44,653 bases of DNA from Saprospiraceae bacterium (GCA_043778315.1 JAYWGJ010000076.1:1-44653), one strand, 5' to 3'; shown: positions 33,001 through 39,000, counted from the first letter of the stretch. Numbers: made by a program.

Positions 33001-36000
33001 AAATTGATGCTTTAATTGCGACAGGTAGTACAAATACAAGTCGTTATTTTGACTATTATTTTAGCAAAATACCACATATTATTCGCAAAAATAGAACCTC
33101 CGTAGCGGTATTGCGCGGCAGCGAAACAGAGGAAGAATTCCATCAATTAGGCATCGATATTTTTCGTTATTTTGGTTTGGGCTGTCGCAATGTAGCTAAA
33201 TTGTACGTCCCGCGTGGCTACGATTTCAACTTATTATTAGAGAAATTGCACGACTTCAATTCGTTGGTTTTACATCATAAATACAAAAATAATTTTGATT
33301 ATAATTTCACGCTGACGATACTCAATAAAGTCCCGCATCTCAGCAACGGCTGCACTATTTTGGTCGAGGAAAAAGTGTTGCATTCGCGTATCGCGATGCT
33401 GCATTATGAGTATTATGACGCGCTCGAGGAAGTACAAACCGCTATTACGGCGCAATATGACGCGATACAGTGTGTGGTTGGCAATGTCAAATTGGCGGAT
33501 ATTGAGGTCTTGCCATTTGGTAAAACGCAGCAGCCAGAACTCTGGGATTACGCCGACCGAATGGATACGATGGCGTGGCTTAACGAGCTACGATAAATGC
33601 GCCGAAACGCTGTTCCGTTGATATACACGCCGAAACAGCGTTTCGGCACACTTTTAACTTTTGTAAAAAAATATGTCTAAAAAAATCTCTTTATTAGTTT
33701 TTTGCTGCTTAGTAGCGGCGAGTGTAATGGCGCAAACTGCTACGGGCGGTCAGATGAATTTTTTTGTGGACAAAGGCATCGGAATTTTTGCGGTAATTGC
33801 GATAGTGATTTCGTGGAGTCGCAATAAATCTATTCTTTGGTGCTTAATTCACGGAATGTTGGGTTTTGGTTACATTATTTATTATTACTCTGTGTTGAAA
33901 AATAAAGATTAAGTTGTTCTGTTCTTTATATTTAATTGACTCAAAACGTGCGGTTTAAACCAAGCTATTTCGCGCAAGATGCGCCTAAGCGTGTCTTGCG
34001 CTTGTTGCTACATTTGCGTAAAACGAACGTGCGGGAGGTACGTTGGTGGATAGTATTATCACTGCTTATTGCAGAACTTTTGGGCGTATTTGATGTATAC
34101 GAAATGGTCAATCGGTGGTTGCTGCCTGGCGTTGGGCGACTAACCGCAGCGCAGCGATTGGCGGCAGAATCTGTATTTGGCGAAAGCCTAAATTACGACC
34201 GTATTTTGATAGATAATCATGCGGCTATCGCCTGTAAAAAAGGCAATTTTGCGTATGTTTCTTTCCATATTGTCAATCATTTCGGACGCATAGAGGATTG
34301 GCATTTGATACACGAACTCATGCACGTTTGGCAATACGAGCGCGTCGGCGCACCTTATATATTATATGCGTTGCAGGCGCAACACTCGCCCGAAAGCTAC
34401 AATTACGGCGGAACGATGGGGCTCATCGAACACCAAAAAATGGGTTTGCGTGCCTTCAATTTTGAGCAACAAGCCGATATTATCGCCGATTATTTTCGTA
34501 TAACAACGGGTTTAAAGCCGCAGTGGAGCGATGCAGTTGCTACGGAATTATACGAGTTCTATATTGAGGAGTTGCGCGGCGGTATTTATTGTAGAGAAAG
34601 CTGATTTTTTGTGATTTGTTTTATCTATTTGTGACAAAATAGAAATATTTTTTTTATATTTGTGACACTGATTTTTTGTTTGTCACAACACAACATATTT
34701 ATACAACACTAAAAAAATGAGCGAAACACAGCCCCAAATTATCATTGACTTAAAGTTAATTGCCAAAAAGAAAAAAAGCCTCGAAAAGGTGAAGGCGGAA
34801 CTCAAGAAAGAGTTTATCGGCATCGATTATGTGATAGACGAACTGGTCGATTACATACAGATTTGGTATTTAATGCCCGAAGTACTTACACGCCCGATTA
34901 TCGTGAACCTTTGGGGTATGACGGGTGTGGGCAAGACCGATTTGGTACGCAAATTGGTCAATAAACTGAACTATCAGGACCGCTTTGTGGAGGTAGAACT
35001 GAGCAACTCGAGCGCGGGCGCGTCGGGCTATCAACATTATAACACGGTGGCGAATATTTTGACGAATAACCGAGTGGACGACGGCAAACCGTCGATAATT
35101 CTTTTTGACGAAATACAGCGATTTTGTACGATTGACGTGGAGGGCAAGCCCATTCAGAATACCTCTTTCAACGATTTTTGGGAGCTACTGAGCGACGGCA
35201 AACTCGCAAAACGGGCTATGCGCGACGAAATGGAGGAGATGATGGATAGGTATTTGTTTGCGTCTATGCAGCGCAAAAAGAAGCCGCCAAAAAAAGAAGA
35301 TAATACTGACGAATACGACCCGTACTCGAACGATACGCTTGGGTTGTGGAATGCCCGCCGTCTGAAAGCCACTTTTGGCTTCGAGGACGACTTGTACAAG
35401 CTCGCCGAAATGAAGGAAGAGGACATTATAAAAACGCTCGAGCGCGCTACAAAAGAGAAAAAAATATACGAAGCGGTCGATTATTCTAAGGCGTTATTGA
35501 TTATTAGCGGCAACTTAGATGATGCGTTTTCGATGTCGACGGAAACGTCGGAGTCGGACGTGGACGCGGATATTTTTCATGCTTATACTGAAAAAATTTC
35601 TATTGTTAATATCAAAAAATCACTTTCTACGCGGTTCAAACCCGAGCAAGTGGCGCGTTTTGGCAATATTCATTTGATTTATAAGTCGCTGAAAAAGAAG
35701 GATTTTGAGCAATTGATAGCAGTAGAAATCAAGAAAATAATAGAAAAAAATCTGCGTCTTTTTGGCGTAACGGTCGTCGTTGATAAAAGTATCAATCGCT
35801 TGTTGTACCAAAACGGCGTGTTTCCTGTGCAAGGCGTTCGCCCTGTTTTTTCGTCGGTTATCGATATTTTGGAGGCGAACTTGACGAAGTTTTTATACGA
35901 GGCGTTTATGACCGAGCAACGCAGTATTTCGGTAGATTACGACTTCACGAAACAGGTGTTAAGCGGCACGTTCGAGAACGGCGAAGCGGTCGTGTTGCCG

Positions 36001-39000
36001 TATATCGGGCGTATAGATATGGTGCGTCAGCGCAATCTCGCCGATGCAGTCGCGAATGTGTCGGTGCATGAGGCGGGTCATGCGGTGGTTTACGGCGTGT
36101 TATTTGGGCTTTCGCCGTTGCAATTGAAGTCGAAAGTGGCATCAAACTACGCTGGCGGCTTCACTTTTCCGCATCAAATATACATGACGAAGGAAAATAT
36201 GCAGCGCAAAATACAAATTTACTTGGCTGGCGGACTTGCCGAAGACTTGATTTTTGGCGAAGCAAACGCAACTATCGGCAGAGAAAACGACCGCGAACAA
36301 ACGGTCACACTCGCTACCGATTACTTGCGTAAATACGGGTTTGACCCTGAGTTTCAGGCGTATTATGTATCGTCAGGCGAAAACGCAATGGGTATGCTCG
36401 TGACCGACAAATCGGTGGAGGCGATGATACAAATGCAGGTGGTCGATACGCGCAAAATACTCGCCGACAACCGCTCGCTACTGATAGAACTGAGCGTCGA
36501 GCTCAACAAATACGGCAGTCTCGACATCAAAACCGTTGCCGCTATCGCCAAAAAACATGGGCATAATTGGAAAGTAAAAGGAGAAAATTATTTGCATCTA
36601 AACGGTTACGCAGAGCAGTTGCGCGAAAGCGAAAAGTCTTCAAAAAGATAGAATTTTAATTGGCAAACCAAAAAATATTTATAATGGGCTAAGATTTAAT
36701 ACAATAATAAATGATTTTAGTTAATGCGCTACTCTATTCACACACAATTATTTACACATTATAAAATAATATTATTTGTAATAAAAAAGGGCTTGTGCCT
36801 TGTAAATAAAGGGTTTTGGCAAAGTATTTGATATTCGTAATACTATATATGATAAAAAAGTTCAAATTTTTTGATTGTAAAATATACATCATCTCATTTT
36901 TTAATTACTTTTGCAGCGCATCAGTTTTACAAATTATTTTCAAATTTAATCAAAAATCAATGGCAAACGACAGTTTTCAAACTAACAACAAAGAAGAAAA
37001 GGAAAATAGCAAACGCGGTTTGCTGGCAGCTATACTCGGTGTAGCCCTTTTAGGTATGACAGGACTCAACGTGTATTTGTTGTACAACAAATCACAACAA
37101 ACACAAACGATTGAAAAACAAGAGTTTGCGCTCACAAAAAGCGACTCACTCAACAAAGAATTGACGCATCAATACGATGACGCAATGAAGGAATTGGAGG
37201 CGCAAAAGGGTACAAGTGCTGAACTCAATAAGCAGATTGAACAACGTAAGTCGGAACTTGCGCGCGCAAAAAATGAAATCGCAGGCATGATTAAACGCAG
37301 CGGTAACGACAAAAAAGCGACTGCCGCTATCGAGGCTAAAATGCGAGATATGCAGTCGCAGGTAGAAGGCTATATGGCGGAGGTCAAAAAATTGCAAGAA
37401 GAAAACGGTATCCTCAAAACCGACGTAGAGAAGAAAACGGGTGAAATAACCTCGCTCAAAACCGAAGTAGAAACCAATAAATCCTCTATTGCGCAAGGCG
37501 AAGAAGCCCGCAAAAAAATAGAAGAGGAAAAAGCAGACTTGCAGAAAAAAGTTGATATCGGCTCTGTTTTGAAGTCAAACAACCTCAAAGTAACGCCTAT
37601 GTGGGAGCGTAAAGGCAAAGAAGACTGGGTTAAAAAGGCGAAAAACTGCGAGAAAATCAAAATCGAGTTTGATGTCATCGAGAATAAAGTGACTAAACCA
37701 GGCGAAAACTATTTTATAGGTCGCATCATCAATCCGCGTGGCGAAACTTTGTTTGTAGAAAGCAAGGGTTCGGGTACGTTCAAAGATAATGTAGGCACTG
37801 AGGTGCGTTTTACCGTGTTCAAAGCATTTAATTATAATAATGATGCACCGAAAGTAGTGATGGAATGGCGCGATACGAAGTTCGAAAAAGGCGACTATCA
37901 AATCGAGATTTTCAATAAAGGCTACAGCGTTGGCAAACAGACTATTACTTTAAATTAAGTAAATTTCATATCTAAAATAATAAAAAAAGCCATCTATTCT
38001 GTTACGAGTAGGTGGCTTTTTTAGGTTTATTGAGCTTTGCTATGCTACAAAATGGTCGGTAATATCAGTGCCGCCGCCTTTCGGATCTGCGCCGTATTCG
38101 TTCGAACCTGCCGTGCCTTCCGAAACCGCTAAGTAAAAGTTGTAAAACGGGATAATCAAAAACCAGCCGCTTTTGCCTACATCGTGCATACGACGTACAC
38201 CAACTGCAATAGCAGGTAGTAATAAAGCGACTGAGTAGATAGACGACAAAATTGGAAATTTGATTGCGCCTGCAATTATGCCAATAACGATAGAACCTAT
38301 CATATTGAATAAAAAGAAATACCAATATTCGCTTCTGCGCGCACGACCGTTGAAGTCGGCATAGTGGTTTTGGATCGCATTCGTAAAGTAACTAAACGGA
38401 TTCATAAGATAAAATGATTTAAAAAAATAAAAAAAGTAAAAATTTCTACTCGTAGGCTTTTCGATACCGCCTGCTGTTTTTTGAGTGGTAGCAACACCGT
38501 AGGTAATACTTGCAAAGTTATATATTATTTTTAACAAAATCATAACAAATTATAAAATAAATAAATAAACTTTTTCATTTTTTAAAAACGAAAATCAGTA
38601 GCGTAAAAATATTTTACTACCGTATAATTTTTGTACCTTTGCGGTCTGAAAGAAAAAGAAAATATTTTTTTAAACTATAAAACACAATAAATATGATATT
38701 GCCCGTTTGGATGATACAATTTATGAAATACCGCTTTCCAGTGTCGTTAGCGATGTTTTTGGGCGGTATCGCCTTGATTTTTGCTATTGGTGGCGAATGG
38801 GCATGGCTGATATGGCTGCCTGGTTTGATACTACTTTTAGCGCATATATTTGTAGGAACTGCCGCTACCGCGTCGCAGTTATTGCAGATGAACGACTTGG
38901 AAGGTGCAAAAGCGATGCTCGCTAAAACGCTGAATGTGAACTGGTTATATACGCCGTTTCGTACCAATTACCACGCGGTAGATAGTATGATAGCGATGAT

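Follow-up and report, generated by a model that had tools for sequence, protein, structure and literature searches.

A soluble protein joining a Clp-type AAA+ ATPase to an M41 zinc peptidase in a Saprospiraceae genome: a probable ATP-dependent metalloprotease with relatives on large viral contigs

The open reading frame (ORF) at 34717..36651 (+) of a 44,653-nucleotide contig from a Saprospiraceae bacterium (GCA_043778315.1, JAYWGJ010000076.1; this whole stretch is called the window below) starts with ATG and encodes a protein of 644 aa. In this single soluble chain, an AAA+ ATPase of the type found in the second nucleotide-binding domain (NBD2) of Clp/Hsp100 proteins (aa 12-428) is followed by an M41 zinc peptidase (aa 431-644), as assigned from the ORF list, from matches in Pfam, NCBIfam and the Protein Data Bank (PDB), and from an AlphaFold2 (AF2) model. 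We propose that the protein, whose two modules differ in origin, is probably a soluble, self-compartmentalizing ATP-dependent zinc metalloprotease with a role in regulated or quality-control proteolysis in the cytosol. An initial interpretation of the DNA without database searches (the sequence-only reading) had described a cytosolic fusion of an ATPase and an M41 peptidase with an intact catalytic set and no membrane anchor. Its ORF boundaries are exact, every motif it quoted translates at the expected coordinates, and domain matches and conservation support the fusion it described. It missed that the ATPase is homologous to Clp NBD2 and that very large viruses harbour many members of the family.

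Architecture and family of the fusion protein

Neither a transmembrane (TM) helix nor a periplasmic domain was found in the 644-aa protein, in agreement with the sequence-only reading: the highest mean Kyte-Doolittle hydropathy over 19 residues is 1.17, the N-terminus is hydrophilic, and the Clp-like helices start at residue 12. The AF2 model of the monomer was computed from an alignment of 138 family members (alignment A2, which is also the source of the family profile used below) and has a mean predicted local distance difference test score (pLDDT) of 94.5 and a predicted template modelling score (pTM) of 0.91. It replaced a mediocre earlier model from 24 close homologues (pLDDT 70). FtsH/YME1 structures were the top matches when the whole-chain model was searched with Foldseek.

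An exhaustive HMMER search delineated a family of 882 clusters at 50% identity (E < 1e-30), nearly all of 600-700 aa and aligning end to end. As the family is large and nearly all of its members are full-length, the fusion of ATPase and M41 peptidase is ancient and is selected as a unit. Soluble proteins thus also pair the M41 peptidase with a Clp-type motor, stably and at the scale of these 882 clusters. Conservation was evaluated in 148 representatives of 50%-identity clusters, which are 32-54% identical to the query. Residues K73, T74, D131, E132, Q134, N266, E310, R314, G373, R375, P376, H451, E452, H455, and D525 are invariant in this set. Conservation of all catalytic residues of both halves shows that ATPase and peptidase activity are each under purifying selection, and the invariant R314, a putative trans-acting arginine finger, implies an oligomeric ring. 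The protein is therefore most likely an active, ring-forming ATP-dependent protease, as judged from conservation down to approximately 32% identity.

An intact M41 peptidase

At the domain level, the conserved sequence features place the protein in peptidase family M41. The peptidase domain (aa 431-644; 36007..36648, +) was recognized by Pfam Peptidase_M41 (PF01434) with 52.5 bits against a gathering score of 29.9 (aa 447-575). Among protease domains, the family profile matched those of yeast YME1 and of four bacterial FtsH proteins (Aquifex, Thermotoga, Thermus, and E. coli) with E = 7.5e-30 to ~1e-23 and that of human AFG3L2 with E = 2.7e-19; the match spans FtsH residues 259-478. The zinc motif HEAGH (aa 451-455; 36067-36081, +) is followed by LAGGLAEDLIFG (aa 503-514, +), which contains E509, and by GRENDR (aa 521-526, +), which contains D525 (36289-36291). 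We take D525 to be the third zinc ligand, following FtsH crystal structures and the profile alignment to FtsH. H451, E452, H455, and D525 are present in 148/148 representatives and E509 in 146/148, in line with the earlier suggestion that the GRENDRE region downstream of HEAGH would supply the third ligand.

This pattern bears directly on whether the protein could be a non-proteolytic chaperone or disaggregase, or a pseudo-protease similar to FtsHi, in which the M41 domain would serve only as an oligomerization scaffold. The nearest relative of the ATPase is NBD2 of ClpB, which is a disaggregase module, and FtsHi, a pseudo-protease, was itself among our PDB matches; plant FtsHi proteins are reported to have lost the catalytic residues (PMC8197885). 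The HExxH motif, E509, and the aspartate ligand are, however, invariant or nearly so in representatives that share as little as 32% identity with the query, which is unexpected for a purely structural domain, and we regard a solely structural M41 half as highly improbable.

An ATPase from the Clp/Hsp100 lineage

Sequence homology links the ATPase to NBD2 of ClpA, ClpB, ClpC, and ClpE, and it is not a degenerate AAA module of FtsH. The AAA domains of the same FtsH chains that were matched through their M41 domains scored -0.6 bits against the family profile, whereas ClpE, ClpB, ClpC, and Hsp104 matched it with E = 4.9e-14 to 1e-9 in two separate stretches. These are the N-terminal helix pair with the P-loop (profile positions 11-103) and the lid or 'D2-small' domain (positions 298-417), for which matches with the small domains of ClpC and ClpB reached E = 1e-12 to 1e-10. 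Searches with the single sequence gave the same picture, with aa 13-135 matching NBD2 of ClpB and aa 299-410 matching ClpC, and the NCBIfam models for ClpB and ClpA aligned locally to the ATPase. Compared by Foldseek with crystal structures of ClpB NBD2, the modelled ATPase yielded TM-scores of 0.64-0.70 (normalized to the target) at a root-mean-square deviation of ~6 Å. The sequence-only reading was right in noting little resemblance to the classical FtsH AAA module, yet the domain is not merely divergent, as it derives from another AAA+ lineage. The lineage of Clp NBD2 belongs to the HCLR clade, together with Lon, ClpX, and HslU.

The individual motifs follow the order of a Clp NBD2. The N-terminal helix pair (aa 12-52; 34750..34872, +), modelled by AF2 as helices at aa 12-32 and 37-52 and containing 'LEKVKAELKKEFIGIDYVIDEL', corresponds to the pair that precedes the P-loop in ClpA/B/C NBD2; the region matches ClpA model positions 442-514, ClpB NBD2 residues 25-156, and ClpE 426-520. 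Walker A (GMTGVGKT, aa 67-74; 34915..34938, +) has G67, G70, K73, and T74 invariant in 148/148, and Walker B (IILFDE, aa 127-132; 35095..35112, +; IILFDEIQ, aa 127-134, at 35095-35118) has D131 and E132 invariant in 148/148; both motifs had been quoted in the sequence-only reading and translate accordingly. The sensor-1 strand IISGNLD (aa 262-268; 35500..35520, +), in which G265 and N266 are invariant in 148/148, corresponds to 'TSNxG' of Clp NBD2. FKPEQVARFGN (aa 307-317; 35635..35667, +), with E310, R314, and G316 invariant, aligns with 'FRPEFLNRVDDI' of ClpC, corresponds to 'FRPEFLNRxD' of ClpB, and contains the putative arginine finger R314. It is followed by an AAA+ small (lid) domain of the ClpB-D2-small type (aa 325-428; 35689..36000, +), identified by the small-domain matches to ClpC and ClpB and annotated as PF10431 on many homologues, with the sensor-2 motif NGVFPVQGVRP (aa 366-376; 35812-35844, +; G373, R375, and P376 invariant). 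In pairwise terms, 'LEKVKAELKKEFIGIDYVIDEL' corresponds to the 'LEEELHKRVVGQDEAI'-type Clp helix, DFWELLSDG to 'LLQVLDDG', and NGVFPVQGVRP to 'GYDPxYGARP', with 'ISGNLD' as the sensor-1 motif of the window protein; the window motifs were taken from alignments, and the Clp strings are general consensus forms.

A family-specific insert and an unusual pore loop

A charged helical insert of ~86 aa (aa 165-250; 35209..35466, +), located by alignment and AF2 at the tip of the pre-sensor-1 hairpin, is specific to the ATPase-M41 family. The long K/E-rich insertion described in the sequence-only reading is therefore real: 40 of its 86 residues are K, E, R, or D, and an insert of 65-142 aa (median 91) is found in every homologue. 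In the models it forms helices at 166-188, 209-220, 226-230, and 234-246, flanked by the two short strands of the hairpin. Its conserved positions are A213, K217, and a hydrophobic residue at 220, and it has no match in Pfam.

The loop at the position of pore loop 1 (SNSSAGASGYQHYNT, aa 96-110; 35002..35046, +), placed by alignment to ClpC, is variable across the family, of low complexity, and the least confident loop of the AF2 model. Its 'GA-SGY' aligns with 'GAPPGYVG' of ClpC, so that 'SGYQHY' in the window protein stands opposite 'PGYVGH'. Each of the 24 close relatives has at least one aromatic residue in this loop, as do 110/138 members overall. A second family-specific element, besides the insert, follows Walker B, where a small conserved hairpin (IQRFCTIDVEGK...) leads into the helix DFWELLSDG (together 35113..35199, +). 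Q134 is invariant and R135, F136, T138, and G143 are strongly conserved in the hairpin, which is a candidate equivalent of pore loop 2, and D153, W155, and G161 are invariant in the helix, which matches the 'LLQVLDDG' helix of ClpB.

Proposed mechanism

By analogy with FtsH and the Clp machines, six subunits could assemble into a two-tier ring that, like FtsH, is held together by its M41 disc, the lower tier. The upper tier would be the NBD2-type ring, with R314 acting in trans to couple ATP hydrolysis around it. The distal face would bind substrates, which would then be unfolded and pulled through the axial pore. The face with which NBD2 of ClpA/ClpC binds ClpP would here be turned towards the M41 chamber, which would occupy the place of ClpP and receive the threaded substrates. 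Cleavage would occur at the zinc site formed by His451, His455, and Asp525, with Glu452 as general base. The insert most likely contributes to substrate or adaptor recognition or to gating, in a role comparable to that of the I-domain of HslU, the M-domain of ClpB, or the N-domain of Lon. In the source genome, the protein is encoded by a stand-alone gene with a likely promoter of its own and a candidate operator, and it most likely performs a Lon-like regulated or quality-control proteolysis of cytosolic proteins outside any multi-gene defence system. The specialized regulatory protease that the sequence-only reading had offered as one option appears, from architecture and context, to be the best remaining interpretation.

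Several observations weigh against this proposal. The canonical aromatic-hydrophobic-glycine motif of pore loop 1 is absent from the 138-member alignment, and 28/138 members, most of which fall outside the bacterial clade, lack aromatic residues in the loop altogether. This non-canonical pore loop is the chief caveat to the proposed mechanism; threading may use other loops, e.g., the hairpin after Walker B, or the mechanism may differ. The suggested physiological role in bacteria is deduced from architecture and genomic context. Evidence of expression is slight and consists of one 196-nt contig from a groundwater metatranscriptome, which matches the Chryseobacterium orthologue; a look for RNA runs of Arcicella returned none, and the window gene itself was found only in DNA metagenomes of biofilms.

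Distribution and genomic context in bacteria

A scan with two exact peptide words, which covers the close clade only, matched 368 of 185,579 species-representative genomes. Carriers within Bacteroidota are Cytophagales (Arcicella, Flectobacillus, Pseudarcicella, and Fibrella), Chitinophagales/Saprospirales, and Chryseobacterium/Cloacibacterium; elsewhere the gene occurs in Acidobacteriota, in Cyanobacteria (Chamaesiphon and Synechococcales), and in one metagenome-assembled genome (MAG) of Acidimicrobiia. The bacterial clade is patchily distributed over four phyla. Sequence identities are 0.53-0.59 between phyla, 0.55-0.57 between orders of one phylum, and 0.73-0.97 within a family, and this star-like pattern suggests horizontal spread followed by vertical inheritance. 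One Arcicella MAG (JANXML01) carries two paralogues, of which L010 occupies the usual position beside DUF2911 and L040 lies among unrelated neighbours.

Neighbouring families were clustered over 85 bacterial loci and annotated in representative lineages. No neighbour family common across lineages was found among these loci; the best was present at 21/85 and lineage-specific. Gene order is fixed within individual lineages, namely DUF2911-gene-HflX in Spirosomataceae, PlsX-FabH-gene-FabD in Chamaesiphon, and coiled-coil membrane protein-gene-tail-collar-like protein in Chryseobacterium. Neighbours of the orthologues are housekeeping genes (PlsX/FabH/FabD, HflX, ArgRS, Fpg, Tag, and a HAD hydrolase), and neighbours seen at single loci elsewhere include a HAD hydrolase, barstar, Fpg, Tag, and arginine decarboxylase. 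The sequence-only reading had named two situations that would refute its proposal, a conserved single-copy core gene of the phylum with housekeeping neighbours, or lack of conservation of the M41 residues among homologues. The outcome is mixed: the neighbours are housekeeping genes, which speaks against defence, the gene is not part of a phylum-wide core, and the M41 residues are fully conserved. At four Saprospiraceae/Lewinellaceae loci (L047, L048, L054, and L077), a gene for an SPFH/band-7 membrane protein (HflK/C-like) lies immediately upstream in the same orientation. This arrangement is reminiscent of the partnership of HflK/C with FtsH and could hint at membrane recruitment in the lineage of those genomes.

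These contexts also bear on the possibility, raised in the sequence-only reading, of a role in anti-phage defence or abortive infection. In an effector of this kind, the ATPase would sense infection and the protease would destroy phage or host proteins. The combination of an ATPase with a protease is common in defence systems, the gene is patchily distributed and was transferred horizontally over four phyla, the Arcicella MAG holds two copies, and PADLOC-DB v2 returned weak matches to the ClpB-like PDC-M37B (34.8 bits) and DolB (29.8 bits). The latter are, however, partial and confined to aa 13-133/179, i.e., the generic N-terminal region of NBD2, and neither neighbour in the window (33936-34604 and 36816-37958) had a meaningful match in the same database. 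No conserved partner or sensor gene accompanies the gene at the 85 loci, and their syntenic, housekeeping surroundings in Spirosomataceae, Chryseobacterium, and Chamaesiphon are unlike a defence island, which we rejected as a description of the locus. The putative zincin next to the window gene is unique to the source genome, and full-length relatives were absent from 72,556 plasmids and 50,697 deposited phages. As relatives are encoded by phages (see below), a general proteolytic tool fits better than a dedicated anti-phage weapon. We therefore consider a defence function very unlikely and favour a cytosolic regulated or quality-control protease.

Relatives on viral contigs

A pattern scan of IMG/VR identified 165 contigs that encode full-length relatives with 27-38% identity; many of these contigs measure 200-550 kb, and at least one comes from a giant virus, a named MAG. 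The viral classification of IMG/VR was taken as given, and hallmark genes were seen for a subset of the loci. Two of the contexts consist of phage-like runs of small co-oriented genes, including T4-type RNA ligase, Thg1, DHFR, NAMPT with NUDIX, dCMP deaminase, Mom, Sir2, phage lysozyme, and a NUMOD3 endonuclease, whereas the context in the giant-virus MAG comprises metacaspase, AsnA, and PMM. Nine recurrent neighbour families of the viral loci were compared with PHROGs and 9/9 matched, among them a Dda-like helicase (1e-80), tRNA-His guanylyltransferase (6e-81), DNA ligase (2e-75), RNA ligase (4e-72), and a virion structural protein (1e-34). No conserved partner emerged across the viral loci, the best neighbour family being present at 17/80. 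The huge-phage-like contigs L165 (P0377 context) and L167 (P0283 context) carry rich auxiliary sets with NAMPT and NUDIX for NAD salvage, PRPP synthetase, Sir2, Mom, an Acb1-like 2H phosphoesterase, Thg1, two RNA ligases, and a PrsW protease; counter-defence or tRNA-repair functions are known for several of them.

Most of the diversity of the family resides in IMG/VR contigs, and the viral relatives are more diverse than the cellular clade: median pairwise identity is 35% among viral sequences versus 57% in the bacterial clade, and 128/143 family representatives are nearer to a viral sequence than to any sequence of the bacterial clade. Searches of reference collections returned FtsH-type or partial matches. 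On the plasmids and deposited phages mentioned above, the only tblastn hits of the window protein and of a viral member were to canonical FtsH peptidase domains. PHROGs contain no family with the ATPase-M41 architecture, only the partial matches phrog_4871 and phrog_30773, and BFVD yielded only classical FtsH-type proteins of giant viruses with 12-15% identity.

It is possible, though in our view doubtful, that the family is primarily a viral protease and that the gene in bacteria was domesticated, or recently captured, from viruses. Large phages or giant viruses might use such an enzyme to take over the host, to eliminate host defence or regulatory proteins, or to maintain the proteome during long infections, with the bacterial copy keeping the activity for a cellular purpose. 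The many large IMG/VR contigs, their phage-like gene content (T4-type RNA ligase, Thg1, NAMPT/NUDIX, Dda helicase, DNA ligase, and virion structural protein), the greater viral diversity, the proximity of most representatives to viral sequences, and the star-like identities between bacterial phyla all point in this direction. So does a midpoint-rooted neighbour-joining tree with viral basal branches, in which the bacterial sequences form one monophyletic clade at a depth of 13 nodes, although a distance tree rooted at its midpoint provides weak evidence. The viral assignments, moreover, are those of IMG/VR, with hallmark genes for a subset of contigs, and no prophage features were seen around the gene in the window. 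Two sister lineages, P0133 and P0271 (38-46% identity), reside in ordinary bacterial chromosomal contexts, which indicates that the cellular branch is deep. We prefer to describe a soluble cellular protease whose clade has spread horizontally between phyla, with a much more diverse set of relatives in very large phages and in some giant viruses.

A broader proposal would be that the family forms an unrecognized class of AAA+ proteases with its main reservoir in very large phages and giant viruses, where it would act as a degradation machine that remodels the host proteome or removes host defence proteins, that bacterial clades such as that of the window gene are domesticated copies gained by horizontal transfer, and that the insert is a new module for substrate selection. 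We regard this proposal as doubtful.

The locus in the source genome

The window derives from stream-biofilm metagenomes and represents a Bacteroidota chromosome. It encodes several C-terminal sorting domains of the type IX secretion system (T9SS). A Por_Secre_tail domain of this kind ends both a 2125-aa surface protein with SdrD-B/DUF11 repeats (3603-9980, +) and a 163-aa protein (11156-11647, -), so the genome is that of a Bacteroidota member with a T9SS.

A probable promoter and operator of the protease gene itself lies at 34629..34688 (+), as deduced from sequence. It combines a Bacteroidetes-type -7 box (TAtaTTTG, 34657-34664), judged by the consensus of Bacteroidetes sigma-A promoters, with three TTGTGACA repeats in the 60 bp upstream of the ORF. 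Two of the repeats are direct and one is inverted (TGTGACA-N13-TGTCACA), and they overlap the box. The window contains seven copies of TTGTGACA against 1.2 expected, including these three. The repeats are a candidate lineage-specific operator for some regulator. TTGTGACA was missing upstream of 76/77 orthologues and therefore offers no family-wide regulatory clue.

Immediately upstream, a 222-aa protein with a HELMH motif and one TM helix (33936-34604, +) resembles the metallopeptidase effector domain of VgrG2b from P. aeruginosa (6H56; phmmer E = 1.2e-4) and had no match in Pfam or NCBIfam. On the basis of its sequence it is plausibly a zincin. Among the 85 loci it is confined to the source genome's own contigs, so its juxtaposition with the protease is incidental. 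It was thereby rejected as a conserved operon partner, and the significance that the sequence-only reading had attached to this neighbour was not supported. A 79-aa membrane protein (33673-33912) precedes the HELMH gene. The product of the downstream gene (36816-37958, +) has a TM helix and a long coiled coil and carries a DUF8428 domain at its C-terminus. The start of this gene is ambiguous between TTG 36816 (ORF finder) and ATG 36849 (369 aa, as on the identical public contig), and a -7-like box, TAcTTTTG, precedes another in-frame ATG at 36960 (MANDSFQ...).

Further away, a locus similar to Rhs/Tc toxins consists of a 1197-aa ORF (13437-17030, -) with RHS and FG-GAP repeats and, beside it, a separate 256-aa SpvB-like ORF (17241-18011, -), both flanked by stretches of low GC content (0.32-0.37; ~9-13 kb and 17-19 kb). 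It may represent a polymorphic-toxin island in which the SpvB part was perhaps split from the Rhs body. A 1656-aa TamB/DUF748-like protein of the translocation and assembly module type (19482-24452, -) adjoins gyrB (24700-26571). The genes surrounding the protease gene are ordinary and comprise, apart from GyrB, those for a CBS-domain cysteine-synthase-like enzyme, a LuxC-like reductase, a DUF805 protein, a TPR protein, an RluD-type pseudouridine synthase, uracil phosphoribosyltransferase, and adenylosuccinate synthetase. Scans of the window for tRNA genes and Rfam families were empty.

Comparison with known AAA+ proteases

The textbook set of bacterial AAA+ proteases is limited to ClpXP, ClpAP/CP/EP, HslUV, Lon, FtsH, and, in some phyla, the proteasome. 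To our knowledge, the M41 peptidase occurs within this set only behind the membrane-anchored classical AAA module of FtsH/Yme1/Afg3-type proteins. The protein described here is a new combination of motor and peptidase within this class of enzymes. The sequence-only reading had suggested that it could be an uncharacterized variant and that NCBIfam be searched; that search gave only partial matches and no model for the Clp-NBD2/M41 architecture, and neither a curated family, a PHROG, nor a published description of it was found in our literature and database searches.

Precedents for ATP-dependent metalloproteases in very large viruses are the 'FtsH-like' genes reported for the jumbo phages MIJ3 and PA5oct (PMC6892783), that of MIJ3 being the nearest. 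Neither phage was found by tblastn with the window protein or the viral member, so these genes are either of the FtsH type or not detectably part of the ATPase-M41 family. For giant viruses, precedent is provided by the BFVD matches to FtsH of Yasminevirus, Megaviridae, and Terrestrivirus.

With FtsH, Yme1, and Afg3 the window protein shares the peptidase domain over its full ~200 aa, the HExxH and aspartate zinc ligands, and the order of ATPase and peptidase in a single chain. It differs from them in lacking TM helices and a periplasmic or intermembrane-space domain, in having an ATPase that is not a classical-clade AAA module with a second region of homology (SRH), and in the ~86-aa insert, which FtsH lacks. 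The scores against the FtsH equivalog models were far below their cutoffs (TIGR01241, 47.4 bits versus 600; PRK10733, 27.9 versus 1008), with only the peptidase part aligning. Homologues are currently labelled as 'cell division protease FtsH' or 'AAA family ATPase'. The former is wrong, given the results for the FtsH equivalogs, the TM anchor, and the AAA clade, and the latter is uninformative.

Likeness to NBD2 of Clp/Hsp100 proteins extends over the N-terminal helix pair, the P-loop, the 'LLxxLDDG'-type helix, the sensor-1 'SGN', the arginine-finger motif 'FxPExxxR', the sensor-2 'GxRP', and the D2-small lid domain. The NBD2 signature residues in Walker A and B, the sensor-1 asparagine, the arginine finger, and a GARP-type sensor-2 are all present, and a single ATPase ring is a feature shared with SKD3/CLPB. 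Differences are the absence of NBD1, N-domain, and M-domain, a pore loop 1 in which 'GYVG' is not conserved, and the large helical insert before sensor-1; a ClpP-docking loop would be needless, as the peptidase is fused. Scores remained below the Clp equivalogs (ClpB TIGR03346, 47.8 versus 1232; ClpA, 36.8 versus 993) and just or well below the Pfam thresholds (AAA_2, 26.0 versus 27; ClpB_D2-small, 13.2 versus 21.9). Judged by its sequence, the protein does not classify as a member of the Clp/Hsp100 family, although the module is homologous.

A soluble ATP-dependent metalloprotease is well supported by these sequence comparisons, and it gains interest from its Clp-type motor and large viral reservoir. 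If confirmed, the family would constitute a natural experiment on the interchangeability of unfoldase and peptidase rings and would supply mechanistic and structural studies with a compact, soluble metalloprotease made of one chain. It would also be a candidate proteolytic machine of huge phages and giant viruses, and the substrates of that machine could show how these viruses control their hosts.

In overall design, the window protein parallels Lon. Both are single-chain proteins, soluble in the case of LonA, in which a HCLR-clade AAA+ module precedes a C-terminal peptidase, both are encoded by stand-alone genes, and both probably perform regulated or quality-control proteolysis in the cytosol. 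The peptidase of the window protein, in contrast, is a zinc-dependent M41 enzyme and not a Ser-Lys peptidase of family S16, a Lon N-terminal domain is absent, and searches of Pfam, NCBIfam, and PDB gave no match to Lon at E <= 1e-3. The protein may thus be summarized as Lon-like in design, FtsH-like in chemistry, and Clp-like in its motor.

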